This document shows, piece after piece, positions 2 to 60,727 of a stretch of DNA of 64,000 nucleotides (within the stretch, counting starts at the first letter, position 1; each line of letters opens with the position of its first letter). Below the pieces are notes generated by a model. It was given only the letters and a program-made list of their open reading frames with translations. It ran no database searches and was not told the origin of the DNA. A program made the translations under genes and the position numbers. Origin of the DNA: a virus (lineage: Duplodnaviria; Heunggongvirae; Uroviricota; Caudoviricetes); IMG/VR virus record IMGVR_UViG_2703718787_000017. One strand, written 5' to 3'.

Positions 2-154
2 AATACGCTGGGGTTACGTAATGCCCTGGCAATTGCTGGCGCGAAAAATGGTATCCGTGAAGCCGAACAGGATCGCCAGATGAACATACTGACGGGGGCT
101 TCTGCACCGGCAAGACAGAAACTGAGTGTTGGCGGACAACTGGTGGCAGCGTAA
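2..154 (+). CDS. 3' end of an upstream gene (partial, continues left of window); hypothetical protein of the same coupled module
   Basis: Open frame from window edge to TAA at 152-154; stop sits 9 nt before the next ATG with a GGAGG RBS in between. Confidence 0.4.
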   Translation, partial: NTLGLRNALAIAGAKNGIREAEQDRQMNILTGASAPARQKLSVGGQLVAA

Positions 155-163
155 GGAGGAAAT

Positions 164-415
164 ATGGGGTACGGCTTACTGGATATTGCGAATCAGTCAC
201 GGCGTGAGGCATTACAGGGAATAAGTGACGCAGACCGACGACGTGAAGAAATTGAGGCTGCGAACAAACAGATGGCGGCGCAACAGAAAGCGCAGAACAA
301 GCAGAATATCGGTACGGGCATTGGTACGGGGGCGGCTATTGGCGCATCCGTTGGTGGTCCTGTTGGTGCTGTTGCTGGAGCAGTAATTGGCGGCATTGCT
401 GGTTCTTTGTTTTAA
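164..415 (+). CDS. small protein with glycine-zipper-like Gly/Ala-rich C-terminus (GTGIGTGAAIGASVGGPVGAVAGAVIGGIAG), probably membrane-associated
   Basis: ORF with strong RBS (GGAGGAAAT-ATG); GxxxG-type repeats in translation; tightly coupled to flanking genes. Confidence 0.6.
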   Translation: MGYGLLDIANQSRREALQGISDADRRREEIEAANKQMAAQQKAQNKQNIGTGIGTGAAIGASVGGPVGAVAGAVIGGIAGSLF

Positions 416-425
416 GGAGTGGTGA

Positions 426-1691
426 ATGAGCGGATTTGCACAGGGGTTACTTGCCGGATTCAGCACGGTTGACCAGGCAATGACCCGTCGTAAGGAGCTT
501 GGTCTGCGTGAAGCACAGCTTGCCCGGCAACAGAAAAATAACGAGCGCGATTTTGAGTTTGCGCAGTCTCAGTTTGAACATAATAAAAACGTTGATCAGC
601 GGAACTTTGATTACAGAGCCAAAGTTGACGACCGTAATTATGCACTGAAGGAAAGGGAGTTTAACGCTAACCAGAATTACCGGAATGCGTCGCTGGGTAT
701 GGAGCAGCAGCGACTCCGGATGCAGAAATACAACCAGCGACGGCTTGAGTATAACGATATGCTGGCGCGCGATCAGCCTGTGATGGCGGCGCTTGGAAAG
801 GCTGTGGATGCTGGCGATCGGGATGCAGCAATGCGTCTTTACGGCCAGTTGTCAGAGGGTAATCCGCTGAGGCTGATGGCGAATGATGGCTATGTAGCGA
901 AAGCGGGTCAGGCCGTGAACAACCTGCAAAAAATCTTTGATGACAAGCCAGACAGGGCTATCGCTTCACTTAATACGCCGGAGAATCTTGATGTCCTTTC
1001 CGGGGTGTTTGGCCCGGAACTGCAACAGCGTATTGGCATGCCCGATTCAACCGGGAAAAAGACGATAAAAGAGGCCAGGATTGGCAGTATAGTACCGGCA
1101 CAGCAGGAAGGGTACATACTTATCGGCCTTGATCTCACATACAGTGATGGCTCTACAGCACATAAACCTGTAACAGAATACGGCAGTGCGCACCCTGATG
1201 ATCAAACCGTGCTGGCGATACCCGTTGATAAGGCTATCGCTCAGGTCAGGGATCGCAGCAAATTTGCAGAGATATCGAAAAATTATGGTTATTTTATGCC
1301 GAAGCAGCAGGGACTTTCTCTGAAAGAGCTTCAGAAGGGGGCCAGCAACGTCGCGGCGGACGCGATCAAGAATGGCGGTAATGCACAGGCTGCGGTGGAT
1401 GAATATTATGCTGCGACTGGTTCACAACCGCATCAACAGAAAATTCAGCAACAAAAACTTCAGCAACAGGTTATCAACTGGGCGGGAGATGATCCTGATA
1501 AGCTGTCATTTGCCAGAAATGTAGCGGCCCGTCAGCCTGAAATGCTGGAGCCTCAGAATCAGAAATTGCTGGAGAACGGGTATGCGAATTTTCTCCGTAT
1601 TCAAAAGGCCAGGGGGGAACAGGCCAGAGATGAAAGTGCTTCATCTGCATCTCAGTTTATCCGTGGACTGAAACAGAATTACGCCCAGTAA
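426..1691 (+). CDS. hypothetical Gln/Asn/Arg-rich, probably coiled-coil protein (421 aa)
   Basis: ORF with RBS (AAGGAG 7 nt upstream); begins 10 nt after previous stop; no family recognised. Confidence 0.6.
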   Translation: MSGFAQGLLAGFSTVDQAMTRRKELGLREAQLARQQKNNERDFEFAQSQFEHNKNVDQRNFDYRAKVDDRNYALKEREFNANQNYRNASLGMEQQRLRMQKYNQRRLEYNDMLARDQPVMAALGKAVDAGDRDAAMRLYGQLSEGNPLRLMANDGYVAKAGQAVNNLQKIFDDKPDRAIASLNTPENLDVLSGVFGPELQQRIGMPDSTGKKTIKEARIGSIVPAQQEGYILIGLDLTYSDGSTAHKPVTEYGSAHPDDQTVLAIPVDKAIAQVRDRSKFAEISKNYGYFMPKQQGLSLKELQKGASNVAADAIKNGGNAQAAVDEYYAATGSQPHQQKIQQQKLQQQVINWAGDDPDKLSFARNVAARQPEMLEPQNQKLLENGYANFLRIQKARGEQARDESASSASQFIRGLKQNYAQ

Positions 1692-1724
1692 TTCACGATA
1701 TTCCATTAATACCATTTCCTGATG

Positions 1725-1749
1725 CCCGGCCATTGTGCCGGGTTTTTTT
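1725..1749 (+). terminator. rho-independent terminator-like hairpin (CCCGGC-cattgt-GCCGGG followed by T7 run)
   Basis: GC stem plus U-run between the 421-aa gene and the giant gene; may act as attenuator. Confidence 0.5.
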
Positions 1750-1760
1750 ATGGAGTCTGT

Positions 1761-4700
1761 ATGGCCTATTCAGAGGAACAGCGTCCTGAGGCGCAACTCG
1801 GTAACCAGAATCGTAACAGCCTGAACATTCAGCAACCCGGCGAAACTGACAGCTATGAAGCATTTTTCTCTGATCCGAATCGCTGGAAGGATAACAGTAC
1901 GTCGTTCAGCCTGGGCGATGTATTGCCAACAATGGGTAAAGGTTTCGCCCAGTCCGTCCGGGGAACAGGGGAAATGGCCCGTGGACTCGGTGATGCGATG
2001 ATTCAGAGCCCGGTAAAAACAGGGGCGCGTATTTTAAATGAGTTCAGCCGTATGGGGCTGCCGGGTGTCGCAACTGTGCAGGATATTTTTGCCGGTGGCA
2101 GCAGGGGGGCTGATGAGGTCATCGATACCCTGCCTGATGGCAAAAACGCGGTTACTGATACTGTCGGTAAAGGTCTGAAGGCAACCGGTAAGGCTGTCAG
2201 TGATGGTGCTGAAGCCACTGATGAATGGCTGACCGGTAAGATGTCGCCGGGTGCAGTTCGTGCGCTGAATACGCCGATGACCGAAGGCTATGATGATTCT
2301 GCGGTCTGGGTGGCGAAGGGTGTAAACCTGATTGGTGCGCTTGTACCTGATATGGTTGCTGGCGGTGTGGCTAAAAAGGTGGGTGATGTCACACTGCGAA
2401 AAATGCTGACCGCCGGGCTGGAGAAAAAATACATCGCGGCAGGGATGCAGCCGGAAAGAGCCACGGCACTGGCAGCAGAAGCTGTCGATAAAAAAATGCC
2501 GGATTTATTCCAGGCGGGCCTGATCACCCATTCCACAGCCAGTGCACAGGGGCAGAGTGCAATGGCGGCAGCAGATGCTGTTCTTAATGCGGATTACTCT
2601 GAGCTGGCGCAGTCACCGAAATTTCAGCAGACGTTTTTGTCCATTGACGCCGACCCGCAGCACGCACAGCTTACTGATCGCCAGAAAATGGATCTGGCAA
2701 AAGAGCGTGTTGCCGATGAGGTGCGCGCGCAGCTGGCAACCGATCCTGAATTGCTGGCTGTGAATGCCATGGCGGCAAAACTGGGTGACGCACAACTGTT
2801 TAATCTGGTGACACGAGGCACAGCGAAGACCGTTAAAAGCGGCATTGTCAGAAATGCCACGGAACAGGGGGCGATTAATGCGGCGCAGGGCGGCTATTCA
2901 CGCTATCAGGAAAACACGGCATTGCGTGAGACCGCCGGAATGGATGTGTCACCGTGGGAGGGCGTGGCTGACGCAACGATCGAAGGTGCAGCCTTTGGTG
3001 CTGCGATGGGGGCTCCATCCGGTGCGGTTGCCGGATATCGTGGCAGACGTCAGGCCGCAGAAGAAGCAGCCATGCGTGATGCTGAAACCGTGCAGCAGGA
3101 CGACGCAGCCCCGCAACCAGAATCTGTTGATCCGGTGGCGCAGCATCGTGAATCCATGCAGGGGATGAATCGCGAGCAGCTTCTGGAGCAGTATGCTGAT
3201 GCGGATATGGCAACAGAGGGGGACGCATCCGCAGCTCATCGCCGGGAAGCTGCCAGCCAGTTGTTGAATGAACTGGACGAACAGGCGAAGCGACAGGCTG
3301 TGATGAATGAGCTGAAGGCGAAGCCGCGTTCTGAACTGCTTGAGGAATACCGCAGACTCAGCCAGAAAGAGGAGCGCACCGAGACTGAAGAACAACAGTT
3401 TCAGGCAATACGAGAAGTCATTCGCCCACAACAGGAAGTGACGCCGGAAGCACAGTCACAGCCTGAAAATGCGGAGGATGGTAACGGGAGCATTTACCCG
3501 ACGGTGCGGTTCCGGGACCCGAATGAAGTCCGCATTGAAATTAACGGGAATGGTGCGTCCAGACCAGCGGAACGCATTGAAAAGGTGCGCCCGGACAACC
3601 GTTATTTCACGGATGAGAAAAGCGCCATGGGGAGTGATGTTTTCCGTAATGCCGCCGCCACCGGCCTGAAACCGTCCGTAGTGAAGAAAGGCGAGACTCA
3701 ATATGCTGTTGAAATGGATAATCCTGCGTTCTCTGAAGATGTGGCAACGGAAACCATTAACACCCTGGCTGACGGAGAGCGTATTGCTGATGCTGACCCG
3801 ATGGAGCAGCCCGCGTTCATGCGTGACCCACGATTCCGTGGTTTCACGGGGGATGATACGGAGGTACAGGCCCGCCTTGCCCGTGGCAACGTGCCGACGG
3901 CAGAGGAGCTTGTACGTTCACAGATGGCTGAAGGTGATGCCGGTCCGACAGCACAGGAGTTAACTGAGCGTCCACGCCTGCCCGCTCCCGGCGATATTCA
4001 TCCCGGACAGGGATATCCGTTACCGGGAGAGGTGGCGCGTACGCCGGATGAGAATCAGGCAGGACGTGGTGGTCGTTTTACCACAACCGGTGAGGTTAAG
4101 GGCCAGAGTTTCCAGAAAGGACAAGCTCTGGCACCGGAAAACGCCGCTGGTCGCCAGGGGGAAACACTCGAGGGTGAAATGGTTCGTCGTGGTCTGCCGT
4201 CACCGGATGCGCAGAACGCGACAGCACCGGTACGTGAAGGGCTACCGGCTCCGGACATTACACACAATGTCCGTATGCCTCAGCCTGATCAGCTTCCCCG
4301 AACTGTTCGTAACTCATTGCCTGAGCTCGCACAGCAGGCAGAAGTACGTCGACAGGCCGGAGGAAATCGTGACATCCCGCAGCCTGAGACAATCGCACCT
4401 GAATCTGAAACAACAGTCGCTACTGACAGGGAAGCTACCGTGCGCGGAGGTGAAGTCAGGGGCAAAAAAATTGAAGACTTTGGTGAAGAAATTAAGGGCG
4501 CGGCAAAACACCGTTATGCACAGCTTGCTGAAACACTGGGTAAAACGCTGGAAGACAGGGATTATGTCACGCAACCGCTGAGCAAACTGTTCCCGAAACC
4601 GGACTACGCAAAACTGGCGAGCGAAGGGGCTGATGCTGACACCCTGGCAATGATAGCGCTGTATCGTAGCGATATTCCGGTGAAGACGAAACACAATACG

Positions 4701-7700
4701 GCAGGCTGGGGGGAGAGCGTAAAAAAAGTACGACACAGTGTATCGGAAATGCTGAACGGAACGGTCAGCGCGAAACGCCTCGCAGAATGGATGGAAGGCA
4801 GAATGCCCTCCCGTTACGCGGACACCTGGCAACTGTTACGCACTCTGCCACCCTCACAGATGGACAAGGCTTCTGCTTATCGGGTGGTATCGGGTGTGTA
4901 TCAGGCGGCAGGAGGGAAGCGTTACGATCCGCCACAGAAACTTTATTCACTGCGCAATAAGGACAATAAGGGGAGTAACCTCTTTTTCTCGGAAAGCAGG
5001 GATGAATTACTGGCAAAGGCGAAAGTCTGGTTTGCAGAGCAGGAGGAAAAATCACAGGCGAAAGGTGATGAAAAAACAGCACCGTCTCCGGATGACAAAA
5101 TCCGCTTTGACGTTTACCGGAATACCCGCAGTGGCGATATTTTTATCGCTTACGGTAAAAACAAAATGCGGGTGAGAGGTGGCTTTAAGTCAGCCAGTGA
5201 TGCGCGTAAGTACATTGATTTACATCGTGATGAGCTTGTTCGTCATGTGAAGGAGATGCGGGAGATTTCGCGTGAGGAGCAGCGCAACGCCACCAACCGC
5301 GACCGTACCGGACCAGAACGCCGCAAGGGGGATGTTTCACCGGAGCAGTTCAGTGATGCGTTTGGTTTTCGTGGTGTGCAGTTTGGTAATTATGTGGAAA
5401 GTCCGCGTCGTCAGGCTGATTTGAACCGGGCTTATGACTCGCTGCATGACCTGGCTGACGTGCTGAATGTACCGACAAAAGCGCTTTCTCTGAACGGTCG
5501 TCTTGGGCTTGCTTTTGGTGCCCGTGGTAAGGGTAAGGCGGCGGCACACTATGAGTCAGGTGAGGTGGCAATCAACCTGACAAAAGGTAACGGACCGGGT
5601 GCGCTGGCGCACGAATGGTTCCATTCTCTGGATAATTATTTTGGTCGTTATGACGTTTCCAGTGACGGGAAAATTACGTCAGGTGGCGACTTTATGACGG
5701 AAGCACAGCGTGTCAGGCGCATATTTAAAGACGGCAGGTATGTTGATGCTGAATATCCGGTACGTCAGGAGGTTTACGACGCTTTTAAAGGTGTGATTCA
5801 GGCCATTAAAAACAGTGACATGCCGCGTCGTTCAGCGCTTCTTGATGAGGTGCGCTCAAAACCGTACTGGTCAACGGATGTTGAAATGGCGGCACGTGCC
5901 TTTGAGCGTTATGTTCAGGATAAGGCGCGTATGGCTGGCGTGGAGAATGATTATCTGGTCAATATCCGTAAGGCACCTGAGCACAACACAGATAACACCT
6001 ACGCTTATCCGACGAATGCGGAACTGGATGGCGGTATTCGTGAGGCATTCGATCACCTGTTCCGCACCCTGAAAACCCGTGAGACGGACAAGGGCGTTGC
6101 GTTTTATTCCCGTAAGGGCATGACCCGCACACCTGAAGGTAATCTCATTTCGGATGTTAACCGTAGTGCGGAAGCCAAAGGCAGCCCGGTCCCGCAGGTT
6201 GAAGCGGTTGCCCGTGGCGTGATGAGCGGCATTAAGGACAGTGACCTGACGGTCCGTGTGGTGAAGTCACAGAAAGAGGCTGAAGCGCTGGCGGGTGAAT
6301 CGTTCGACGGTTACGGCAGGGTGCACGCATTCTATCGTCCGGATAAACGAGAAATTGTCCTGGTGGCGGATAACATCCCTGACGGGCAGACCGTACGCGA
6401 GAAGTTGCGTCACGAGATTATCCACCATGCCATGGAGCATGTTGTCACGCCAGCGGAATATCAGACGATTATCAAAACCGTGCTGAAAACCCGCGACAGT
6501 GATAACGCCACCATCCGTGAAGCCTGGCGTAAGGTTGATGCGTCCTATGGTAAGGAATCACCGGAAGTACAGGCGGGTGAATTTCTGGCACATATGGCGG
6601 AGAAACAGCCGAATAAATTCGTGGCGGCATGGGAGCGTGTTGTTGCCCTGGTCAAAGGGGTACTGCGTCGTACGGGGTTACTGAAGCCGACGGAACTGAA
6701 CGATATCAGACTTGTTCGCGAGACCATCCGTACGTTAGGCCAGCGTGTGCGGGAAGGTTACACGCCGCGTGAGGATGGCGTGGGCGCATCGTCTCAGTAC
6801 TCCCGTAGTGGTAAGCCTGATCCGTTCAAAGTGCCGGAAGGTGAGGGTGAACGTTATCGCGATGACCTTGCCAGAATGATGAAATCTCTGCGTACCACAG
6901 ATTTAACGGTAAACATCGGGCGTACGCCGCCGGTATTGCGTCACCTTGGTGCACCGGATTTGCCGCTGGTTATTTCCCGCGATACTGTGCGGAAGGCCAC
7001 CAATGGTGTGAAACATGTGGTGCCGATGGATGTTATCGAGAGACTACCGGAACTGATGCACGATCCGGATGCAATTTACCGCTCAGCGACAGAAAGAAAT
7101 GCGGTTGTGATGCTGCTTGATGCCGTGGATAAAAATGGTGATCCGGTAGTGTCTGCGGTGCATATGAAGGCAACCCAAAAACTTCTGGAAGTTAACCGTA
7201 TTGCTTCTGTTTACGGAACGGAAAACGGGAAAAAACTGAAGAGTATGGAAACGGCTGGCTTAACATTATACAGGAGAGAAAAACTAAACCCTGATGGTTC
7301 TCTGTACAGAGGGCTCCAATTGCCCAAAGATGAGCACTCCCGTCAGGGTTCTGCGGATAAAATACTCTATCCTGAAGATATTCGCAAGGGGCCGTATTAC
7401 TCCCGTACCAGCAGTCTGACACCGGAAGAGACAATTGCATCGCGTTTTGTGCGCCAGATGCAGGATAAATTCCAGGTGCTGAAAGCTGTTCAGGAGAATA
7501 TCCGTAAAACTGGTGGAAAAATAGACGACAGTAACAACGCTTATATGGCGGAAGAACTCTTCCACGGGAAGGCGGAAAACGACCTGAACGTGATGAAGGA
7601 GCGCTACGTTCAGCCACTGGCTAAATTACTGGCGGACTACAAAATTGCGCAGGCCGATCTGGATGAGTACCTCTACGCCCGTCACGCGCCGGAACGTAAC

Positions 7701-10142
7701 GCGCATATCGCGAAAATCAACCCGAAAATGCCGGACGGCGGTTCGGGGATGACCAACGCGGAGGCGGCGGAAATCATGCAGCGTGTACGTAACAGCGGCA
7801 AACAGGCACAGTATGACCGTCTGGCAGGGATTGTTGACGATATGCTGGCCCGTCGCCGTGAGCTTATCCGTGAGGCAGGACTGGAAGAGAGCGGCGTGGT
7901 GGATGCCTGGCAGAAAGCCTACCGTTACTACGTTCCCCTGAAAGGGCAGGATGTTGACGGTGTGGTGTCACTGCCACGTACAGGCAAGGGATTCACCATC
8001 GGCGGGCGTGAAAGTAAGCAGGCCATGGGGCGCGCATCCCGCGCACAGTCTCCTTCCACTCAGGCGATACAGGATTTGAGCGAATCACTGATCCGCAATC
8101 GCAAAAATGAAGTGGGTAACGCCTTCCTGAAACTGGTACAGGATAATCCCGACAAGGATTACTGGCAGGTATTCACCGATGACAGACCGGATACCATGCG
8201 GACGATTGCAGAGCGCAAGGACAAGGAAACTGGTGAAACCATTCGCGAAGTTGTCGAACGCCCTGTACCGATGGCAATGATGGCAGACCGGTACTTCACC
8301 ACCAAAAAGAACGGCAAAACGTACTACATCAAACTCCATGATCCGCGCCTGATGCGTGCGATGAAGAATATGGGACCGGAAACCAGTAACGCCGTAATCC
8401 GCACGCTGGGGAAAGTTAACCGCTTCCTGGCAACGGTGAACACGTCGTATAACCCGGAATTCCTGGTCAGTAACTTCATCCGTGACGTACAGACGGCGGT
8501 GATGAACCTGAAGGCGGAGCAGGGAAGGAGCGACGGCAAACTGAAAGGGCTGGATAACTTATCCGCACTGGCTGTGGTGAAAGACAGTCGGTCTGCCATG
8601 TCTGCCGTATACGCCAGTCTGCGTGGTAAAACCCTCACGGGCAACGGTGCGCAGTGGCAGAAGGTGTGGAAAGAGTTTGTTGAGGACGGAGGTAAAACCG
8701 GCTGGTTTAACATGGGTGACCTTGAAGGCCAGCAGAAGGAAATGGATCGCCTTGTATCGCTGGCGAAGGGAGGATGGAAAGGCCAGAGTATCGGTGCATG
8801 GAATTCGTTCCTTAACCTTGTCGAGGATGCCAACGGGGCGGTTGAAAACGCTCTGCGTCTTTCTGCCTATAAACACGCCCGTGATGCCGGTTTGTCACGC
8901 CAGCAGGCGGCGTCTCTTGCCAAAAACATGACGGTGAACTTTAACCGTCGTGGTGAGCAGGGGGCGCTGATGAACTCGCTGTACATGTTCGCCAACGCCA
9001 GTATTCAGGGAACGGCAAATCTGGTGAGAACGCTCGGACATCTTAATGGTGAGGGACCTTTACTGGAGCGCCTTCGCTGGAAGAATCTGAATGTTCCGCA
9101 GAAAATCGCGCTTGCCGCTGTGGGAGCGGGTTATCTGCTTGGCTCGCTTAACCGCAGCGTGGCGGGTGAGGATGATGACGGGGTTAACTGGTATGACAAA
9201 GTACCGTCTCATGTGAAAGAGCGTAACCTCGTCATTATGAAATCGGTGTTCGGGGGCAAGGCCGGAGAGTACTGGAGTATTCCTCTGCCTTACGGGTACA
9301 ACGTTTTCTTCCTGCTTGGTCACACAGCCGAAGGGGTGGCAGCGGGCGACCTGACCGCTTCACGTGCTGCCGGTAATGTTGTTGGTGGTGTGCTTGGGGC
9401 ATTCAGTCCTGTGGGCAGTGAAACGTCGGAAACACTGTCCGGGGCATTGCTGAAAAATGCAGCGCCGACCATTCTGCGTCCGTTTGCGAACCTTGCCATG
9501 AATGAAAACTTCATGGGGGCGCAGATTTACCAGGAGAACATGCCGTTTGGTACACCAAAACCTGACAGCCAGCTGGGAAGACGTTCAACGCCAGAAGCGT
9601 ACAAGGCGTTTGCATCCTGGCTGAATGCGTTCTCAGGTGGCAGCCAGTACCGTCCCGGCGCGGTGGATATCACACCGGAATCGCTGAAATTCTGGATTGA
9701 CTATATCTCCGGAGGGACAGGGCGCTTCATTTCCAAAACCACGGATGCGGCGGTGAAATCGCTGAATGGTATTGATATACCGGAACAGCAGGTGCCCTTC
9801 CTGGGGAAAATTTCGGGGGAGGTGATGCCGTATGCAGACCAGCAGAAGATGTACGACCGGATGACAGAGATTGCGCAGTATCACGCAGAGCTGAAGAGTC
9901 TGACCGGTGCAGAAAGAACGGCGTTCATTGACGAGAACAACGGAAAATTGTCGATGAACGGGCTTATGCAGGATACCCGGAAGAGACTGAAGGATTTGCG
10001 TAAACAGCGTGATGCCATTTATGCCGACAGTTCTCTCAGTCTGGCGCAGCAGGCGGCGATAGTGAAATCGGTAGAGCGGGATATGAAGGTTGCCGTGGAT
10101 CGCTTTAACCGCGAGTACAACAAAAAAGTGGGAGTGGATTAA
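1761..10142 (+). CDS. giant multidomain 'polyvalent-type' protein (about 2793 aa) with HExxH zincin-like motif (HEWFH at 5610-5624), second H-E-x-x-H-H motif near 6411, Pro/Glu-rich low-complexity linker and Gly/Ala-rich N- and C-terminal segments
   Basis: Single uninterrupted 8.4-kb frame; start ATG at 1761 preceded by GGAG; HExxH motif read directly; domain architecture otherwise unresolved without profile search. Confidence 0.8.
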   Translation: MAYSEEQRPEAQLGNQNRNSLNIQQPGETDSYEAFFSDPNRWKDNSTSFSLGDVLPTMGKGFAQSVRGTGEMARGLGDAMIQSPVKTGARILNEFSRMGLPGVATVQDIFAGGSRGADEVIDTLPDGKNAVTDTVGKGLKATGKAVSDGAEATDEWLTGKMSPGAVRALNTPMTEGYDDSAVWVAKGVNLIGALVPDMVAGGVAKKVGDVTLRKMLTAGLEKKYIAAGMQPERATALAAEAVDKKMPDLFQAGLITHSTASAQGQSAMAAADAVLNADYSELAQSPKFQQTFLSIDADPQHAQLTDRQKMDLAKERVADEVRAQLATDPELLAVNAMAAKLGDAQLFNLVTRGTAKTVKSGIVRNATEQGAINAAQGGYSRYQENTALRETAGMDVSPWEGVADATIEGAAFGAAMGAPSGAVAGYRGRRQAAEEAAMRDAETVQQDDAAPQPESVDPVAQHRESMQGMNREQLLEQYADADMATEGDASAAHRREAASQLLNELDEQAKRQAVMNELKAKPRSELLEEYRRLSQKEERTETEEQQFQAIREVIRPQQEVTPEAQSQPENAEDGNGSIYPTVRFRDPNEVRIEINGNGASRPAERIEKVRPDNRYFTDEKSAMGSDVFRNAAATGLKPSVVKKGETQYAVEMDNPAFSEDVATETINTLADGERIADADPMEQPAFMRDPRFRGFTGDDTEVQARLARGNVPTAEELVRSQMAEGDAGPTAQELTERPRLPAPGDIHPGQGYPLPGEVARTPDENQAGRGGRFTTTGEVKGQSFQKGQALAPENAAGRQGETLEGEMVRRGLPSPDAQNATAPVREGLPAPDITHNVRMPQPDQLPRTVRNSLPELAQQAEVRRQAGGNRDIPQPETIAPESETTVATDREATVRGGEVRGKKIEDFGEEIKGAAKHRYAQLAETLGKTLEDRDYVTQPLSKLFPKPDYAKLASEGADADTLAMIALYRSDIPVKTKHNTAGWGESVKKVRHSVSEMLNGTVSAKRLAEWMEGRMPSRYADTWQLLRTLPPSQMDKASAYRVVSGVYQAAGGKRYDPPQKLYSLRNKDNKGSNLFFSESRDELLAKAKVWFAEQEEKSQAKGDEKTAPSPDDKIRFDVYRNTRSGDIFIAYGKNKMRVRGGFKSASDARKYIDLHRDELVRHVKEMREISREEQRNATNRDRTGPERRKGDVSPEQFSDAFGFRGVQFGNYVESPRRQADLNRAYDSLHDLADVLNVPTKALSLNGRLGLAFGARGKGKAAAHYESGEVAINLTKGNGPGALAHEWFHSLDNYFGRYDVSSDGKITSGGDFMTEAQRVRRIFKDGRYVDAEYPVRQEVYDAFKGVIQAIKNSDMPRRSALLDEVRSKPYWSTDVEMAARAFERYVQDKARMAGVENDYLVNIRKAPEHNTDNTYAYPTNAELDGGIREAFDHLFRTLKTRETDKGVAFYSRKGMTRTPEGNLISDVNRSAEAKGSPVPQVEAVARGVMSGIKDSDLTVRVVKSQKEAEALAGESFDGYGRVHAFYRPDKREIVLVADNIPDGQTVREKLRHEIIHHAMEHVVTPAEYQTIIKTVLKTRDSDNATIREAWRKVDASYGKESPEVQAGEFLAHMAEKQPNKFVAAWERVVALVKGVLRRTGLLKPTELNDIRLVRETIRTLGQRVREGYTPREDGVGASSQYSRSGKPDPFKVPEGEGERYRDDLARMMKSLRTTDLTVNIGRTPPVLRHLGAPDLPLVISRDTVRKATNGVKHVVPMDVIERLPELMHDPDAIYRSATERNAVVMLLDAVDKNGDPVVSAVHMKATQKLLEVNRIASVYGTENGKKLKSMETAGLTLYRREKLNPDGSLYRGLQLPKDEHSRQGSADKILYPEDIRKGPYYSRTSSLTPEETIASRFVRQMQDKFQVLKAVQENIRKTGGKIDDSNNAYMAEELFHGKAENDLNVMKERYVQPLAKLLADYKIAQADLDEYLYARHAPERNAHIAKINPKMPDGGSGMTNAEAAEIMQRVRNSGKQAQYDRLAGIVDDMLARRRELIREAGLEESGVVDAWQKAYRYYVPLKGQDVDGVVSLPRTGKGFTIGGRESKQAMGRASRAQSPSTQAIQDLSESLIRNRKNEVGNAFLKLVQDNPDKDYWQVFTDDRPDTMRTIAERKDKETGETIREVVERPVPMAMMADRYFTTKKNGKTYYIKLHDPRLMRAMKNMGPETSNAVIRTLGKVNRFLATVNTSYNPEFLVSNFIRDVQTAVMNLKAEQGRSDGKLKGLDNLSALAVVKDSRSAMSAVYASLRGKTLTGNGAQWQKVWKEFVEDGGKTGWFNMGDLEGQQKEMDRLVSLAKGGWKGQSIGAWNSFLNLVEDANGAVENALRLSAYKHARDAGLSRQQAASLAKNMTVNFNRRGEQGALMNSLYMFANASIQGTANLVRTLGHLNGEGPLLERLRWKNLNVPQKIALAAVGAGYLLGSLNRSVAGEDDDGVNWYDKVPSHVKERNLVIMKSVFGGKAGEYWSIPLPYGYNVFFLLGHTAEGVAAGDLTASRAAGNVVGGVLGAFSPVGSETSETLSGALLKNAAPTILRPFANLAMNENFMGAQIYQENMPFGTPKPDSQLGRRSTPEAYKAFASWLNAFSGGSQYRPGAVDITPESLKFWIDYISGGTGRFISKTTDAAVKSLNGIDIPEQQVPFLGKISGEVMPYADQQKMYDRMTEIAQYHAELKSLTGAERTAFIDENNGKLSMNGLMQDTRKRLKDLRKQRDAIYADSSLSLAQQAAIVKSVERDMKVAVDRFNREYNKKVGVD

Positions 10143-15160: not shown

Positions 15161-17587
15161 TTAAACCTTTTCGATCTGGACAAGATTGCTGTGCGACGGG
15201 TTTCCCTTTGCCAGCGGTGAAGGGCGGTGAGAGGTCAGAATATTGATACTGCCGCCGTGATCGACCCGGTCACCAAACATATCCGCTTTAAGCCACGCAC
15301 CTTGCCCGATGGCGGTAACGCCAGGCAGAATACGCGGAGTCACTTTTGCGGCAATCAGCATTTCTCCATTATTGTTAAATACCCGCACGGTATCGCCATG
15401 ACGGATACCGCGTGCCTGAGCATCAATGGGGTTGATCCACACCTCTTGTGGGCAGGCCTGCTGTAACACATCAATATTGCCGTAGCTGGAGTGGGTACGC
15501 GCTTTGTAGTGGAAGCCCGTTAACTGCAGTGGATAGGTTTTCCGCAGGGGATCGTCCCAGCCATCAAAACCTGGGGTATACGCAGGAAGGGGATGAATAA
15601 TTTCATCTTTTTTCAATTCCCAGGTATCTGCAATCTTCGCCAGTCGTTCAGAATAAATTTCGATTTTCCCCGAAGGTGTTTTCAACGGGTTTGCCTGTGG
15701 ATCTTCACGGAATGCGCGGAAAGCGACGTAGTGTTCTTCCGGGCATTTTTTCTTAAAGATCCCGGTCGTTTTCATCTCCTCGTAGTCGGGCATCTCAGGG
15801 TTACGTTCCTTCGTTTTCGCATGGAGATATTTGATCCATTCATGCTGACTGCGACCTTCAGTAAAGGTTTGATAAACGTCTGGTCCTAAGCGTTTGGCGA
15901 CTTCACTCAGCATCCAGTAGATGGGTTTGCGTTCAAATTTTGCTGAGGTTGCGGGTTGGGCGAGGATCACATAGCCCATATTCCCTGCAGATTCATGAGA
16001 GATAAGGTCTTCTTGCTCTGTTGGCATCAGGTCGGGCAACAGGATATCGCAATACTTAGCCGAGGCCGTCATGAAGTGGTCAATGCCAACAATCATCTCG
16101 CACTTGCTGTCATCCTGAAGCACCTCATGGGTGTGATTGATGTCGCCATGTTGATTGATCAATGTGTTACTGGCGTAGCACCATAAAAACTTGATGGGGA
16201 CATCCAGTTTTTCTTTTCCACGAACACCATCACGGGTCGCGGTCATTTCCGTACCATGGTCGATGGCATCTGTCCATGTAAAGACGGAAATCTGCGTTTT
16301 AACAGGATTCTCAAGCATCGGGAACCATTCTACCCCCAGATCCCAGCTACCTTCGCGTACACCTGAGTTGCCGCCGTTTATGCCGACGTTACCGGTGAGA
16401 ACGGAAAGCATGGCAATAGCGCGGGACGTTTGCTCGCCGTTGGAATGTCGTTGTGGCCCCCAACCCTGACAAATATAAGCAGGTTTTGCTGAACCGATCT
16501 CTCGTGCCAACTGGATAATTTTTTCTGCCGGGATGCTGGTGATTTTTGCTGCCCATTCCGGCGTTTTAGCTATGCCGTCAGGCCCTTCGCCCAGAATATA
16601 GGCTTTATAATGCGCGTTACGTGGTGCGTTGGCGGGCAGCGTTTTTTCATCGTAACCAACACAATATTTGTCGAGAAATGGCTGATCGACCATGTTTTCA
16701 GTAATCAGTACCCAGGCAATCGCACAGGCCAGTGCGCCATCGGTGCCAGGGCGAATGGGCAGCCATTCATCTTCACGCCCGGCAGCAGTGTCGTTATAAC
16801 ATGGATCGATGACGATCATGCGTGCGTTTGAACGTTCGCGGGCTTGCTCGACGTAGTAAGTGACACCACCGCCGCTCATCCGCGTTTCTGCCGGGTTATT
16901 TCCGAACATAACGACCAGTTTCGTATTGGCGATATCATCCGGGCTGTTGCCATCATTGGCACCGAACATATAACTCATTGCGGCACTGATCTGTGCGGTA
17001 CTGTAGCTGCCATAGCGACTGAGAAAACCACCGCAAGAGTTCATCAGACGGTACGGGACGTTTGAGTTGGTGATGTTTCCGCCATCTACGCCTGTTCCGT
17101 ACAGGACATGTACAGCCTCATTGCCGTAATCTTTCAGGATCCGCCGAAGATTATCACTGATGGTATCCAGGGCTTCGTCCCAACTTATCCGTTCAAATTT
17201 ACCTTCACCGCGCTTGCCGACGCGCTTCATGGGATATTTCAACCTATCAGGATGATTCATCCGTCGGCGGATAGAGCGCCCGCGTAAACACGCTCGAACC
17301 TGATGGTTACCGTAGACGTCGTCACCTGTCGTATCAGACTCCACCCAGTACACGGTGTCATCTTTCACATGCAAACGTAACAGACAGCGGCTCCCGCAGT
17401 TAACGGTGCAGGAACTCCAGACCGCTTTCTCTTCTACCGGAGCCTCTGCCGCCCGGACCATTTGGGAAAATGGCAGAGTGAAAGCACTGCTTGCCAGCGC
17501 AAGACTGCCAAGTGCGGAGGTTTTCATCAGACTTCTACGGCTGATTTCAGCCTTCATGAGCGCCTCTGTGGTATGGATTTTCATCAT
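15161..17587 (-). CDS. ynfF: DMSO-reductase-family molybdoenzyme catalytic subunit YnfF, with twin-arginine signal (SRRSLMK)
   Basis: 808-aa ORF; Tat motif; CTVNCGSRC Fe-S motif; paralogous to the split ynfE. Confidence 0.95.
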   Translation of the reverse strand: MMKIHTTEALMKAEISRRSLMKTSALGSLALASSAFTLPFSQMVRAAEAPVEEKAVWSSCTVNCGSRCLLRLHVKDDTVYWVESDTTGDDVYGNHQVRACLRGRSIRRRMNHPDRLKYPMKRVGKRGEGKFERISWDEALDTISDNLRRILKDYGNEAVHVLYGTGVDGGNITNSNVPYRLMNSCGGFLSRYGSYSTAQISAAMSYMFGANDGNSPDDIANTKLVVMFGNNPAETRMSGGGVTYYVEQARERSNARMIVIDPCYNDTAAGREDEWLPIRPGTDGALACAIAWVLITENMVDQPFLDKYCVGYDEKTLPANAPRNAHYKAYILGEGPDGIAKTPEWAAKITSIPAEKIIQLAREIGSAKPAYICQGWGPQRHSNGEQTSRAIAMLSVLTGNVGINGGNSGVREGSWDLGVEWFPMLENPVKTQISVFTWTDAIDHGTEMTATRDGVRGKEKLDVPIKFLWCYASNTLINQHGDINHTHEVLQDDSKCEMIVGIDHFMTASAKYCDILLPDLMPTEQEDLISHESAGNMGYVILAQPATSAKFERKPIYWMLSEVAKRLGPDVYQTFTEGRSQHEWIKYLHAKTKERNPEMPDYEEMKTTGIFKKKCPEEHYVAFRAFREDPQANPLKTPSGKIEIYSERLAKIADTWELKKDEIIHPLPAYTPGFDGWDDPLRKTYPLQLTGFHYKARTHSSYGNIDVLQQACPQEVWINPIDAQARGIRHGDTVRVFNNNGEMLIAAKVTPRILPGVTAIGQGAWLKADMFGDRVDHGGSINILTSHRPSPLAKGNPSHSNLVQIEKV

Positions 17588-17644: not shown

Positions 17645-18675
17645 TTATATTTTTTCGATCTCGACCAGATTAGTGTGCTGCGGGTTTCCCTTCGCCAGTG
17701 GTGAAGGGCGCAGAGTGGTTAGCGTATTCACACAGCCGCCATGGTCGATTTTATCGCCAGACATATTGGCCTCGTGCCAGGCTCCCTGGCCCATAGCGCT
17801 AACTCCAGGGAGAATACGTGGTGTTACTTTGGCTGGTAGCCGAACTTCGCCACGATGGTTAAACACCCGCACCATATCGCCGTTGGCAATCCCACGTTTC
17901 TGCGCATCTATAGGGTTGATCCACACCTCCTGACGGCAGGCAGCCTTCAGGAGATCAATATTGCCGTAGGTCGAGTGAGTACGGGATTTGTAATGGAAAC
18001 CAAACAGTTGCAGTGGGAAGGTTCTACGTTCAGGGGAGTCCCAGCCTTCAAAGGTAGAGGCATAAACTGGCAGTGGGCTTATCACTTCATCTTTTTCCAG
18101 TTCCCAGGTACGGGCAATTTCCGCCAGCTTGCTGGAATAAATTTCAATCTTACCGGAAGGTGTTTTAAGTGGATTTGCCTCGGGGTCGTCACGAAATGCT
18201 TTGTAGGCGACAAAATGACCATTGGGATCTTTACGCTTATAGATACCCATTTTTTTCAGTTCGTCGTAAGACGGTAACGCCGGATCTTTGGCAAGCATTT
18301 TGGCGTACAGATGTTGTAACCATTGTTCCTGCGTGCGACCTTCAGTGAACTTTTGATAGACGTCAGGTCCAAGACGTTTCGCGACTTCACTCAGGATCCA
18401 GTAAATCGGTTTGCGTTCGAATTTTTCGCTGGTGACAGGCTGGAGGAAAATGAGATATCCCATGTTACCGGCGTAGTCGTTAGGAATAATATCTTCCTGC
18501 TCAACGGTCATCAGGTCTGGCAGCAGAATGTCGGCATATTTTGCCGATGAGGTCATAAAGTTTTCGATGACCACAATCATTTCGCATTTCGATTCGTCCT
18601 GCAGAATTTCATGCGTTTTGTTGATGTCAGAATGCTGATTAACGAGGGTATTTCCCGCGTAGTTCCAGATGAACT
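17645..18675 (-). pseudogene. ynfE: ynfE 3' portion (C-terminal about 340 codons) separated from its 5' portion by the island
   Basis: Translation parallels YnfF C-terminus; native frame begins at …IKFIWNYAGNTLVNQ; upstream part of the ORF is island sequence. Confidence 0.85.
18661..18675 (+). repeat. left copy of 15-bp direct repeat AGTTCCAGATGAACT (att core / target duplication)
   Basis: Exact match to 25258-25272. Confidence 0.8.
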
Positions 18676-18736
18676 CCATTGTCAGACGGATGGATGGACT
18701 TGAAGTAGTTGACTCAATGCTACTTAAGGTCCTGAT

Positions 18737-20341
18737 ATGACTGACATTAACCATGATAATACTGTATGTCCATCCAGTTCTTTCTCTGGGTCTCCCTATC
18801 TGTATCAGCAAGTCTGCACCTCAAGTCCTGACACAAGGCTGACACAAATCAATATACTCAGCGTAGCTAAGCCTCAGTTAGTCCGTAGAGCCAATGGTCG
18901 ATATACTATCCGCTTCAGACTCAAGGGACAGACCATCCCGTTTCTTTCAGTATCGACCCGAAGCACAGACAGGAGAGTAGCCACAATGCGTCAGAGAGAG
19001 CTTGCAGCCACAGCTAAGACATTCCTACTAGACAAGCCTGAAGTTTCGCTACAGGAGCTTACAGAGCACCTCCGGTCTATGGCTGAGCAGTTCCTGACAG
19101 ACGCCAGTGATGACTACTGGAATGGACTTGAGGTCGCTACTCTGGTGGACGAGAAGTCCAACCTGAAGGAGCTAGCCGCTACGCAAGCCTTGAGTCTGGA
19201 CCAGCAGAAGGGCATAAGGTTAGCGCTTGAAGTCCTGACCGCAGCACAGCAGAGGGTAGACACTGGTGATGCCTCTGGTCTGATTAAGCTGATTGATGAT
19301 AATAACCATACTGATTACTCAACTATAGGCGACTATACGTCCATTCTGAAGAATGAGCAGGGGGATAGACCAGCAGTTTTCACACAGGTTACTGCTCCTT
19401 GCAGTCACAGCGAGCGTCAGCCATCTGTGGTTTTTTCAAGCCTAGTGTCCTCGCTGCTGGCTGAGAAGGTCCAGACCCTGAAGTCCTCCAGCTACAAGGA
19501 CCTGTCGTCCTCACTGAATACCGTCTCTCGGTTCTTACCTGAAGACATGGACCTGATGTCCCGCTCTGAGTGGCTGGCTGTCAGGGACTCTATGCTTGCT
19601 TCTGAGGTGAGACCATCGACAATCAACAAGCTGCTGACCAAAGCGAAGATGTGTCTCGATTATGGCCTGATGAATGGGCAACTTGAGGGCCGCAACCCTA
19701 TTGAACGGATGAAGCTGACCAAGGATATCGACTCCAAGCGCAGAGCGTTCACAGACGAGGAGCTGGATGGACTTCTTGTCCGGGTAGAGGCTGAGTATCA
19801 GTTCACACGACATACCGCTCACACGACCTCTGAGGCTCGCAGGTGGGCGACTCTGGTCTCTGTGGTCACTGGCGCTCGGTCTGCTGAGGTCTGCCACCTG
19901 ACTAAACGTGACATTGTAACCTTGGACAATGGACTGGTCTGTATCGACATCAATGAAGATGGGGGCGGGAAGTCCGTAAAGAACAAGCATTCAGTCCGAC
20001 TTGTACCGCTGACCGATGGCGCTTATGGGTTTGACCTGAAGTCCTTCCTCGAATGGGTAGACATGCAGCCTGACGAGGGTCCTCTCTTCGGGATGACTCC
20101 AAGCGCATACTCTAGCTGGTTTAACTCAAGGGTCCTCACAGAGGCTCTCCCAGACGCTGAGAACGTCTCTCTACACAGTCTGAGACATTGGCTGGCGACC
20201 CGGATGAAAGAGCGTGGAGTCAATCTGGTGGACGCTCAGGGCATCTTAGGTCACAGCAGTCAGTCCATTACGTATGACCTGTACGGGAAAGGACATGCAG
20301 TTGGTAGGCTGGCTGATGTGCTGAAGACAGCTTTACTTTAA
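18737..20341 (+). CDS. tyrosine recombinase (integrase), 534 aa with extended N-terminal region
   Basis: C-terminal catalytic pattern: …GARSAEVCHL… (Arg), HSLRHWLATR (His-x-x-Arg), ITYDLYGK (Tyr); gene sits just inside the left repeat. Confidence 0.85.
   Translation: MTDINHDNTVCPSSSFSGSPYLYQQVCTSSPDTRLTQINILSVAKPQLVRRANGRYTIRFRLKGQTIPFLSVSTRSTDRRVATMRQRELAATAKTFLLDKPEVSLQELTEHLRSMAEQFLTDASDDYWNGLEVATLVDEKSNLKELAATQALSLDQQKGIRLALEVLTAAQQRVDTGDASGLIKLIDDNNHTDYSTIGDYTSILKNEQGDRPAVFTQVTAPCSHSERQPSVVFSSLVSSLLAEKVQTLKSSSYKDLSSSLNTVSRFLPEDMDLMSRSEWLAVRDSMLASEVRPSTINKLLTKAKMCLDYGLMNGQLEGRNPIERMKLTKDIDSKRRAFTDEELDGLLVRVEAEYQFTRHTAHTTSEARRWATLVSVVTGARSAEVCHLTKRDIVTLDNGLVCIDINEDGGGKSVKNKHSVRLVPLTDGAYGFDLKSFLEWVDMQPDEGPLFGMTPSAYSSWFNSRVLTEALPDAENVSLHSLRHWLATRMKERGVNLVDAQGILGHSSQSITYDLYGKGHAVGRLADVLKTALL
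18829..18850. repeat. two direct copies of TGACACAA (putative integrase arm-type sites, left end)
   Basis: CTGACACAAGGCTGACACAAAT; same motif appears three times near the right end. Confidence 0.45.
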
Positions 20342-49765: not shown

Positions 49766-50176
49766 TTAGCGTGGTAAGATCTGTGTAGTTTTCTGGATGC
49801 TTTCAGTAAATAGTAATGAGTTATCAAAGGCATAGTAATATCTTTGGTGTTCCTGGATATTTGTAACCCATCGGAAAACTCCTGCTTTAGCAAGATTTTC
49901 CCTGTATTGTTGAAATGTGATTTCTTTTGATTTCAACTTATTATAGGAGGTCTCTATAAGATGTTTGTTTCTGGAGAATTTAACATTTACAACCTTTTTG
50001 AGTCCTTTTACTAACACTATGTTGTCGTTTTCTAACACAATGTGAATATTATCTGTGGCTAAATAGTAAATATAAAGTGAGACATTGTGACGTTTTAGCT
50101 CAGAATAAAATAATTCACAGTTTAAATCTTTACGCACTTGATCGAATATTTCTTTAAAAATGGCAGCCTGAGCCAT
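49766..50176 (-). CDS. ydfO: YdfO-like protein (DUF1398-type)
   Basis: 136 aa from [24 protein letters not shown]…. Confidence 0.7.
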
Positions 50177-50476
50177 TGGTAAACCTTCCATGTGATACGA
50201 TAGCGCGTAGTTTGCATTATCGTGTTTATTGTTTCAATCTGGTCTGACCTCTTTGTGTTTTGTTGATGATTTATGTCAAATATTAAGCCTGTTTTTAATG
50301 AATAGTGTTGATTGCGTAACAAAGTTGAGCCTTGCTGGCATCCAGGAGGGATATGCAACCGACAGATGTATGTAAGGTCGATGTACTCAAACTTTCATAC
50401 TTTTCCTCTTTTATGCAGAAAGATTTGAAGTAATATTTTAACCGCTAGATGACGAGCAAACGCATGGAGCGACAAA

Positions 50477-51236: not shown

Positions 51237-51731
51237 ATGGATCGAGAGTTAAAAAATCTGACGCTGAATATCAGTCAACTGGCGGCATTGTCAGGTGTAC
51301 ATCGCCAGACTGCTGCGGCAAGGCTGCAAAATCTACCCGTTGCAGGGGGGCATGAAAGCAACCTCAAGCTTTATCGGGTGGTTGATATTGTGTCGGCATT
51401 TCTGGCATTACCACCGCCGGTTGCAGAAGGCGAAATGGACGCGCATGAGCGCAAAGCCTGGTATCAGTCTGAACGTGAGCGTCTTAAGTTCGAACAGGAA
51501 ACGGCACAACTCATTCCGGCCAGTGATGTCAGACGGGAGTTTGCCATCTGGGCAAAAGCGGTCGTGCAGGTGCTGGAGACATTACCGGATATTCTTGAAC
51601 GTGACTGCGGTCTGCAGCCTGCCGCTGTGAGCCGTGTTCAGTCCATTATTGATGATCTGCGCGATCAGATAGCCCTGCGGGTGACTGAAGCAGGTGCGGA
51701 TGATGAGGAGGAATTACAGCAGGAGGAGTAA
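51237..51731 (+). CDS. nohA: terminase small subunit (Nu1-like)
   Basis: HTH-type N-terminus MDRELKNLTLNISQLAALSGVHRQT; overlaps large-subunit start. Confidence 0.85.
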   Translation: MDRELKNLTLNISQLAALSGVHRQTAAARLQNLPVAGGHESNLKLYRVVDIVSAFLALPPPVAEGEMDAHERKAWYQSERERLKFEQETAQLIPASDVRREFAIWAKAVVQVLETLPDILERDCGLQPAAVSRVQSIIDDLRDQIALRVTEAGADDEEELQQEE

Positions 51732-53833: not shown

Positions 53834-54042
53834 ATCAGAATGATATTGAAGCCATGATTCAGCGTTATACGGAAGCTGAAATGGCAGTGCTGGACGGAAA
53901 ATCCGTCACTTTTAATGGTCAGCAGATGACCATGGAAAACTTATCTGAGATCCGGCAGGGGCGGCAGGAGTGGGAGCGCCGCCTTGCGGCTCTGATTACA
54001 CGACGACGGGGGCATCCCGGGTACCGGCTGGCGAGGTTCTGA
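53824..54042 (+). CDS. head-tail joining protein (gpW-like)
   Basis: 72 aa between terminase and portal; TGATG overlap with portal start. Confidence 0.6.
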   Translation: MVMNQNDIEAMIQRYTEAEMAVLDGKSVTFNGQQMTMENLSEIRQGRQEWERRLAALITRRRGHPGYRLARF

Positions 54043-55550: not shown

Positions 55551-55563
55551 TTCCTGGTTCAGG

Positions 55564-60389: not shown

Positions 60390-60727
60390 CGCGGGAAATG
60401 CAGTTTGTCATGCGGCTTGCCCGGGAGTTCCGGCGGGCAGACTGGCGGCGGATGCTGTCGGAAATGTCGGCCACTGAGCTTGGTGAGTGGGGCGATTATT
60501 TCCGGATGCAGAGCTTCAGTGATGTGTGGATGGATGCGCAGTTTGCCTCGCTGAAGGCATTGATCGTGAGAATGGTGTCCGGCAGCAGTGATGCTGCGGT
60601 GGCTGATTTCAGCCTTTTACCGGAAGAGAACGGGATACCGGAGCGAACGGACGAAGAACTGATGCATCTTGGGGAAGGTATTTCCGGAGGTGTGCGTTAT
60701 GGACCAGATAGCCAACCTGGTCATTGA
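60365..60727 (+). CDS. gpT-like extension reached by putative -1 programmed frameshift from the G-like gene (G-T fusion)
   Basis: -1 frame opens at 60365 and overlaps the last 8 G codons; A-rich candidate slip site CGGAAAAG at 60376-60383. Confidence 0.45.
   Translation, partial: GADAGKVLTREMQFVMRLAREFRRADWRRMLSEMSATELGEWGDYFRMQSFSDVWMDAQFASLKALIVRMVSGSSDAAVADFSLLPEENGIPERTDEELMHLGEGISGGVRYGPDSQPGH

Follow-up and report, generated by a model that had tools for sequence, protein, structure and literature searches.

The giant gene and its reading frame

The window analysed here is the whole 64,000-nucleotide stretch of IMG/VR record IMGVR_UViG_2703718787_000017 (Caudoviricetes), and its first part carries the end of a phage late operon closed by a single giant gene. 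The longest open reading frame (ORF) runs from 1722 to 10142 on the plus strand and, according to the ORF listing and its translation, holds 2,806 codons in one open frame. Translation likely starts at the ATG at 1761, giving a protein of 2,793 amino acids (aa). We prefer this start because a GGAG lies ahead of it at 1751-1754, because the frame from the ATG at 1722, two bases 5' of a hairpin (1724-1743), would cross that hairpin, and because the 13-residue extension contains two cysteines, whereas the remaining 2,793 residues contain none. The features of the gene, by nucleotide (nt) position, are as follows.

1724-1750, plus strand: intrinsic-terminator-like hairpin followed by seven T (stem-loop 1724-1743; 7-bp stem with six G-C pairs), separating the gene of a 421-aa protein from the giant gene
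1761-10142, plus strand: giant gene, 2,793 aa plus stop, frame uninterrupted
1761-3170, plus strand: N-terminal domain (aa 1-470), rich in Gly and Ala; by HMMER, the shared N-terminus of a giant-protein family in phages
3171-4880, plus strand: Pro/Glu/Arg-rich low-complexity linker (aa 471-1040), defined by composition
4911-5360, plus strand: LPD5 (aa 1051-1200), Pfam PF18799, E 1e-44
5304-6080, plus strand: zincin domain 1, CLCA_X-like (aa 1182-1440), with HEWFH at aa 1284 and Pfam LPD1 as its C-terminal part
6111-6860, plus strand: zincin domain 2, or HEx2 (aa 1451-1700), with HEIIHH at aa 1551 and without a Pfam model
7008-7271, plus strand: MuF_C (aa 1750-1837) by Pfam, of the BECR-fold RNase-like class of Iyer et al.
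7401-10139, plus strand: C-terminal module (aa 1881-2793), about 910 aa, mostly helical, with no solved fold, including LPD38
9186-9803, plus strand: LPD38 (aa 2476-2681) by Pfam

The original prediction had described a single 8.4-kb ORF of 2,793 aa with two HExxH-type motifs, a Gly/Ala-rich N-terminus, a Pro/Glu-rich linker and a Gly-rich hydrophobic C-terminal part, and this description agrees with the sequence. HEWFH occupies aa 1284-1288 (nt 5610-5624) and HEIIHH aa 1551-1556 (nt 6411-6428); Ala makes up 14-25% and Gly 7-14% of aa 101-500; the Pro/Glu-rich linker spans aa 501-900 and continues to about aa 1000; and aa 2401-2600 form a Gly-rich, mildly hydrophobic stretch. The partial ORF (2-154) and glycine-zipper protein (164-415) placed upstream were likewise found, together with the gene of the 421-aa protein at 426-1691. 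The hairpin, with its seven T, exists, but the name attenuator does not suit it: lying between two late genes, it is better described as intrinsic-terminator-like, an assignment by consensus match alone. Terminator-consensus sites in the region are no commoner than in shuffled sequences, and the local fold z-score is only -1.4.

Identity and conservation of the gene

By megablast, the first 12 kb of the window match 398 phage records, with 99.7% identity to Shigella phage 75/02 Stx, 97% to POCJ13 and 96.9% to VT2-Sakai and its relatives. The part of the window that carries the giant gene is a Shiga toxin (Stx)-type podophage prophage, and the gene is the orthologue of Sp5 ORF80 (ECs1242), VT2-Sakai orf71, 75/02 Stx gp68 and phi24B gp47. 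The short-tailed Stx phages with this ORF belong to the Sepvirinae, and Sp5 is VT2-Sakai. The protein, to which phrog_616 aligns along its full length, is also 2,793 aa long in VT2-Sakai and 75/02 Stx, with about 97.5% identity to the former and nearly 100% to the latter in unchanged synteny. Between the window and Sakai, 129 codon differences are synonymous and 71 non-synonymous, which indicates purifying selection. The gene, which makes up about 14% of the phage genome, is present in 427 of 5,426 complete E. coli genomes (about 8%); the match spans at least 80% of it in 423 of these, sampled rows annotate one coding sequence, and in NZ_CP075852.1 it matches at 100%. A frame interrupted in better assemblies had been named as grounds for doubt, and the frame proved intact in the complete E. 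coli genomes. We therefore regard it as real and under selection, given the length shared by the phages, its integrity in complete genomes and the pattern of codon differences. One 100-residue bin, aa 1801-1900 (nt 7161-7460), is only 83% identical between the window and Sakai, against 93-100% in every other bin; it overlaps a low-confidence linker between MuF_C and the C-terminal module.

The orthologues have been studied experimentally. In Sp5, where late genes were deleted singly, ORF80 (2,793 residues) was essential for infectivity (Mondal et al. 2016, PMC5155283). The deletion mutant (dORF80) packaged DNA, its heads looked normal and DNase-resistant genomes reached the wild-type level, and it gave neither plaques nor lysogens on E. 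coli K-12 MG1655; dORF79 (ECs1241) behaved in the same way, packaging DNA yet remaining non-infective (PMC5155283). ORF80 was classed there as a tail-formation gene with a COG1483 AAA+ domain (PMC5155283). In phi24B, gp47 is the same ORF with a longer start; proteomics finds it in abundance in purified virions, yet neither cryo-EM, negative-stain images nor the atomic model shows it (10.64898/2026.04.10.717836). The phi24B data also include about 36,000 emptied particles (10.64898/2026.04.10.717836). This preprint lists LPD5, LPD1, LPD38 and a "MuF-C metallopeptidase" in gp47, and proposes for it a role as an ejection protein carried inside the capsid, with a peptidase that digests peptidoglycan (10.64898/2026.04.10.717836). 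The LPD domains and MuF_C were themselves defined on "polyvalent proteins" (Iyer et al. 2017, PMC5512222). RefSeq annotates the protein as an LPD5/LPD38 domain protein, and 75/02 Stx gp68 and VT2-Sakai orf71 as "LPD5 domain-containing protein". Literature and RefSeq thus already record the gene, that it is essential, that its product is in virions and which LPD domains it has; the original prediction has found a known gene again and has largely arrived at the current view of it. What we add, as leads and not as demonstrations, are a homology to phage N4, a block of five cysteine-free genes, a conserved core architecture and two corrected labels.

Domain architecture of the giant protein

Pfam LPD5, LPD1, MuF_C and LPD38 all score well above their gathering cut-offs. 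The linker (aa 471-1040) has no Pfam match, and its homologues are detectable in enterobacteria only. An AlphaFold2 model of LPD5 consists of two beta-beta-beta-alpha units with pLDDT mostly 82-97; its Foldseek neighbours are weak, Pur-alpha and NTF2/cystatin-like curved sheets being among them (E about 0.3-0.6), and may hint at nucleic-acid binding, a hint too weak to use. The NCBIfam model CLCA_X covers aa 1182-1437 (E 6e-44, under its subfamily cut-off), and LPD1 matches at aa 1361-1440; since the CLCA_X model covers both HEWFH and LPD1, we treat them as one zincin-like domain.

In the second HExxH region, R1550, H1551, E1552, H1555, E1607 and E1614 are invariant across 17 divergent relatives. 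Its signature is HExxH with a downstream Glu, both HExxH domains carry a conserved downstream Glu, and zincins are fold neighbours of the protein's HExxH region; the Pfam MPTase-PolyVal model does not match the giant protein. MuF_C, which keeps H1752 and S1816, is not the metallopeptidase because both HEWFH and HEIIHH lie outside it, and we therefore reject the label "MuF-C metallopeptidase". The COG1483 AAA+ ATPase label also fails, since there is no [AG]xxxxGK[ST] Walker A motif anywhere in the protein and no P-loop family match in Pfam or NCBIfam. Sp5 ORF80, phi24B gp47 and the gene of the window are the same gene, with nothing material differing between them, and our results depart from the published annotations in these two labels. 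An ordinary tail-fibre or tape-measure protein, the identity that domain searches were meant to reveal if the original prediction were wrong, was not found: no such family of Pfam, NCBIfam or PHROG, collagen-like ones included, matches the giant protein, and as a control the lambda-type tape measure elsewhere in the window (60669-63764) was readily detected. Sequence searches of the PDB with the whole giant protein, a zincin-2 profile and the upstream 421-aa, 218-aa and 148-aa proteins returned nothing at E <0.01 (best 0.036, an unrelated telomere protein), and Foldseek of the middle model against the PDB returned nothing at E <0.1.

Conserved ends and exchanged cargo

Searched exhaustively with HMMER, aa 1-470 match 98 cluster representatives, and in those that are about 1,500-4,700 aa long the match falls within the first ~500 residues. 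Among the 59 giant relatives that share this N-terminal domain, zincin 2 is the most widely retained middle domain, being found in 46 by single-sequence phmmer, and a profile search finds the LPD38-type C-terminal module in 28 (a Pfam scan of 13 of these gave LPD38 in six and LPD39 in seven). Their middles hold a methylase, an SNF2/Sbno helicase, ddrB-ParB or LPD5-LPD1, with ADP-ribosyltransferase also among the cargo; LPD5 plus LPD1 also occurs as stand-alone proteins. Across relatives, the N-terminal domain, zincin 2 and the long C-terminal region are kept and the cargo is exchanged.

The C-terminal part (aa 1881-2793) recurs as a unit, at 32-58% identity over about 98% of its length, in diverse bacteria and metagenomes, where it is preceded by varied domains such as methyltransferases and ART-PolyVal. 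On two phage contigs it stands alone as a gene, preceded by one of 2,181 aa in the first case and by one of >3,100 aa in the second; this separate gene again ends the structural operon, and on one contig it adjoins an integrase. Because the 2,181-aa gene (contig L007) ends with zincin 2, the natural gene split lies just past that domain. Two E. coli in-frame deletion variants join aa 1-496 to aa 1693-2793 (P0004, 1,596 aa) and aa 1-379 to aa 1383-2793 (P0266, 1,775 aa); they keep the N-terminus and the C-terminal part and have lost much of the middle, which suggests that the middle is dispensable cargo. Among E. coli copies the middle is 68-96% identical, against 93-98% for the C-terminal module. 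A Pectobacterium prophage has the same gene order ahead of a related giant gene at the prophage edge, whose product has no C-terminal module and may be truncated. An Amphritea locus with a stand-alone LPD38 protein (L003) resembles a prophage remnant and was set aside as uninformative on function.

The best-supported reading of these data is a three-part plan, comprising an N-terminal handle in common with gp50 of phage N4 (see below), a flexible linker with a swappable enzymatic middle, and a long C-terminal region. The chain is probably processed by zincin 2, which is nearly universal in the family and placed at the natural gene split; the argument of Iyer et al. for a metallopeptidase (MPTase) hub points the same way (PMC5512222).

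A probable link to the N4 virion RNA polymerase

Within the N-terminal domain, aa 260-418 align to aa 297-437 of N4 gp50 with an hhalign probability of 92-93% (P 3.5e-7), and the controls T7 gp15 and gp16, P22 gp16 and gp20, and N4 gp51 and gp53 gave 0.2% or less. In hmmsearch the N-terminal domain scored 20.7 bits against N4 gp50, and none of 1,999 local shuffles exceeded 13.8. Remote homology of aa 260-418 to the N-terminal domain of the N4 virion RNA polymerase is therefore probable, not proven, the similarity being short and in Gly/Ala-rich sequence.

Among giant ejected proteins, N4 gp50 has been studied best. It is packaged, could not be seen in an earlier virion reconstruction and leaves the particle once gp51 and gp52 have gone; in the authors' view it moves as beads on a string and is anchored to the ejectosome by its N-terminal domain (PMC13434306). 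At 3,500 aa, gp50 is a very long single polypeptide; like the Stx phage protein it goes into the capsid, is difficult to resolve by cryo-EM and has no cysteine, and smaller cysteine-free partners (gp51 and gp52) are encoded alongside. In gp50 an MPTase domain lies downstream of the cargo, according to Iyer et al. (PMC5512222), and gp50 is ejected through the tail, as the Stx phage protein would be. The cargo, however, is not an RNA polymerase in the present protein, zincin 2 and the LPD38 module have no detectable similarity to the gp50 C-terminal domain, and the small upstream proteins show no similarity to N4 gp51 or gp52.

A block of five cysteine-free genes

Immediately upstream of the giant gene lie the following genes.

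2-154, plus strand: 3' end (last 50 codons) of the 148-aa gene, homologue of VT2-Sakai orf68 (phrog_596, E 3e-24)
164-415, plus strand: gene of an 83-aa glycine-zipper protein (Pfam Gly-zipper_YMGG, E 9e-6, below gathering score; phrog_594)
426-1691, plus strand: gene of the 421-aa protein (phrog_601, E 4e-210), without cysteine
164-415 and 426-1691 in the window and L001:11049-12154: the four cysteine-free upstream genes, namely the homologues of orf67 (218 aa) and orf68 (148 aa) and the genes of the 83-aa and 421-aa proteins

Together, the giant protein and the four upstream proteins contain no cysteine in 3,663 aa. The flanking late genes of VT2-Sakai encode 1-8 cysteines each, the Pectobacterium homologues repeat the pattern, and 54 of the 59 giant relatives also lack cysteine. 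As controls we used the reference genomes of T7, N4 and P22 (L008, L009, L010). N4 gp50, gp51 and gp52, P22 gp7, gp20 and gp16, and T7 gp15, gp16 and gp7.3 have no cysteine, and T7 gp14 and gp6.7 have one each, so that these 11 known ejection proteins hold two cysteines in 8,051 aa; the other tabulated proteins of the same phages hold 102 in 13,690 aa (0.75%). At 0.75%, about 27 cysteines would be expected in 3,663 residues. With none observed, the five-gene block shares a compositional trait with proven ejection proteins, a near absence of cysteine that is an empirical trait of these controls and not an established definition. Unfolded passage through the tail channel and the oxidising periplasm would be a plausible reason for it. 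No report of cysteine lack in ejection proteins was found within the literature searchable here.

Sakai orf68 (148 aa, no cysteine) has a 126-aa homologue at the same position in the Pectobacterium prophage. The 83-aa protein, which RefSeq calls a "bacteriocin", has no cysteine and a 91-aa homologue in the Pectobacterium prophage, and it is a candidate small ejection or membrane-inserting component. A "bacteriocin homolog" detected in phi24B virions was dismissed by the authors as a contaminant (10.64898/2026.04.10.717836); it is probably the 83-aa protein, which may be a true virion component. The 421-aa protein has a 436-aa homologue in the Pectobacterium prophage and no PDB relative, and we equate its gene with Sp5 ORF79 (ECs1241) by gene order, not by sequence comparison. 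A loose repeat of (D/N)xR(N/D)(F/Y) type was seen by eye in its aa 30-90 (window 426-900), with the units ERDFEF, QRNFDY, DRNYAL, EREFNA and NQNYRN.

A stronger version of this observation is that the five consecutive cysteine-free genes constitute an N4-like DNA-ejectosome, and that in it the N-terminal domain of the giant protein acts as an "ejection handle", common to many such proteins, for enzymatic cargo that can be swapped. We put this forward tentatively, as an idea more likely wrong than right on the present comparisons. If true, every E. coli cell newly infected by an Stx phage would receive an active zincin protease together with a BECR-type RNase, and an almost complete lack of cysteine would serve, from sequence alone, as a general marker of phage proteins that travel through the tail.

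Relation to polyvalent, ejection and MuF proteins

The giant protein has the hallmarks of polyvalent proteins, in which unrelated domains are joined in one very large chain, encoded among virion genes, around a zincin peptidase hub. It contains at least two independent domains (LPD5, the CLCA_X/LPD1 zincin, the second zincin, MuF_C and LPD38), two HExxH domains provide a zincin-like MPTase hub, and its gene is the last of the late operon, after the head and tail genes, a position at the operon end that recurs in Pectobacterium and metagenomic phages. Unlike typical polyvalent proteins and P1 DarB, its only recognisable anti-restriction or nucleic-acid-modifying domain is the RNase-like MuF_C, and it is essential, not accessory. 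A DarB-like identity was considered and rejected: the N6-adenine methylase-SF2 helicase fusion is absent here, though present in several relatives with the same N-terminus.

The ejection proteins T7 gp14, gp15 and gp16 and P22 gp7, gp20 and gp16 have a similar life-cycle role, given that the Sp5 mutant packages DNA and is non-infective, and they are near-cysteine-free too. With the MuF/SPP1 gp7 head proteins, the giant protein has in common the MuF_C (PBECR) domain and the idea of a head-packaged effector carrier. Unlike them, it has no detected MuF domain (portal-associated head morphogenesis), and its MuF_C is internal, not C-terminal.

Proposed role as an ejected pilot protein

Taking these lines together, we consider that short-tailed Stx phages use the giant protein, a chain of the polyvalent type, as a pilot (ejection) protein housed in the capsid, a reading to which we assign a probability of about 0.68. 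It would be synthesised late and packed inside the head, as the proteomics of phi24B gp47 indicate for that phage and orthology predicts here. On infection, it would be expelled through the portal and tail channel, loosely folded like beads on a string, before or with the DNA. The N-terminal domain and the four small cysteine-free proteins would then form, or dock onto, a conduit that crosses the envelope. The middle part would bring enzymes into the cell, since folds and motifs identify two HExxH...E zincin peptidase-like domains and a BECR-type RNase-like domain, with predicted activities to match, and at least one zincin would probably cut the polyprotein into modules. The LPD38 module of about 910 aa, whose modularity is seen in its relatives, would be a separate functional unit of the virion or the ejection machinery. 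The virion proteomics that the original prediction had called for thus exist for a cognate phage, with packaging reported for the phi24B orthologue gp47.

Several observations weigh against the pilot role. The evidence in Stx phages is confined to packaging and comes from the proteomics of one preprint. The similarity to N4 covers about 140 residues of Gly/Ala-rich sequence at a modest bit score, with a single N4 sequence compared. In hhalign comparisons, zincin 2 and the C-terminal module have no similarity to N4 gp50, and no segment resembles T7 gp13-16, gp6.7 or gp7.3, P22 gp7, gp14, gp16 or gp20, or N4 gp51-53, which leaves gp50 as the sole match among ejection proteins. The protein has no classical transmembrane helix, the top 19-residue Kyte-Doolittle average in the whole chain being 1.38 (aa 181-199). 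Lack of cysteine is not specific either, as scaffolding proteins, the N4 major capsid protein, the P22 needle and Sakai orf58 and orf62 show it too. Finally, classical P22 ejection-protein mutants still make tailed particles. The Sp5 dORF80 particles, in contrast, were not bound by tail-fibre antibody, from which the authors infer a tail-assembly defect (PMC5155283), and a missing tail-fibre antigen is atypical for podophage ejection-protein mutants.

The antibody result is also the mainstay of the main rival, in which the giant protein is a tail-assembly or structural protein (a scaffold, plug or chaperone that attaches the tail to filled heads) and not an ejected carrier. DNA-filled heads without tail-fibre antibody binding were likewise seen for dORF70, dORF71 and dORF79, all four genes are tail-formation genes according to the authors, and the gene stands at the end of the tail gene block. 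Nevertheless, the abundant gp47 has no density in the phi24B cryo-EM model, which includes the portal, adaptors, nozzle, needle and fibres; no tail-fibre, tape-measure or baseplate domain is present; and some 2,800 residues of enzyme-like and low-complexity domains suit a fixed structural part poorly. The loss of the tail could moreover be secondary, for example if an internal protein primed or stabilised the portal vertex. We judge a tail role unlikely.

The original prediction had likened the protein to polyvalent proteins and their proposed injection with the DNA to counter host defences. Membership of the polyvalent class holds, through LPD5, LPD1, MuF_C and LPD38; the counter-defence function has no support for this member, in which no anti-restriction module was found. 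A mainly anti-defence effector like P1 DarB, dispensable where the host lacks the matching defence, would find encouragement in relatives with the same N-terminus that carry a DarB-type methylase-helicase, ParB or ADP-ribosyltransferase, in the greater variability of the middle than of the C-terminal module among E. coli copies (68-96% and 93-98% identity), and in a match of the PHROG "DarB-like antirestriction" to the C-terminal region (E 4e-26). That match, however, sits on the LPD38 region and not on an anti-restriction domain, and the giant protein itself has no methylase, SF2 helicase, ParB or ADP-ribosyltransferase domain. The deletion mutant, moreover, forms no plaques or lysogens on MG1655, and the protein must therefore have a core role in infection and not only an accessory anti-defence one. 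We rate an anti-defence role as less probable still than a tail role. Least probable of all is the proposal of the phi24B preprint that the key activity is peptidoglycan digestion by the metallopeptidase, which would let the conduit cross the periplasm: two HExxH domains are present and a cell-wall hydrolase is a frequent part of podophage ejection proteins (as in T7 gp16, annotated "internal virion protein with endolysin domain"), and a purely peptidoglycan-digesting role, like a purely anti-defence one, has little support for this member of the family.

Short-tailed Stx phages spread Shiga-toxin genes among E. coli and Shigella. If the giant protein is an ejected carrier, it sets how the envelope is crossed after BamA binding and which enzymes arrive before phage gene expression, both of which matter for lysogenic conversion and for the rise of new Stx-producing strains. 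Similarity to N4 gp50 and lack of cysteine also offer a cheap flag for candidate ejected proteins in other phage genomes.

Surrounding prophages

Downstream of the giant gene, the Stx-type prophage ends near 14.8-15.1 kb, where it adjoins ynfF. The remaining features of the window are these.

15161-17587, minus strand: ynfF, intact
17645-18811, minus strand: ynfE-like fragment, truncated
18737-20341, plus strand: phage integrase gene, abutting the ynfE-like fragment
51731-57522, plus strand: large ORFs of the second prophage
60669-63764: lambda-type tape-measure gene

Two prophages thus flank ynfF, as the Stx-type prophage ends on one side and an integrase lies beyond the ynfE-like fragment on the other; the second, at 18737-64000 of the window, is a long-tailed lambdoid prophage. 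No tRNA genes were found anywhere in the window. A low-GC patch (36% GC at 48-50 kb) lies beside a DUF1398 gene (49766-50191).

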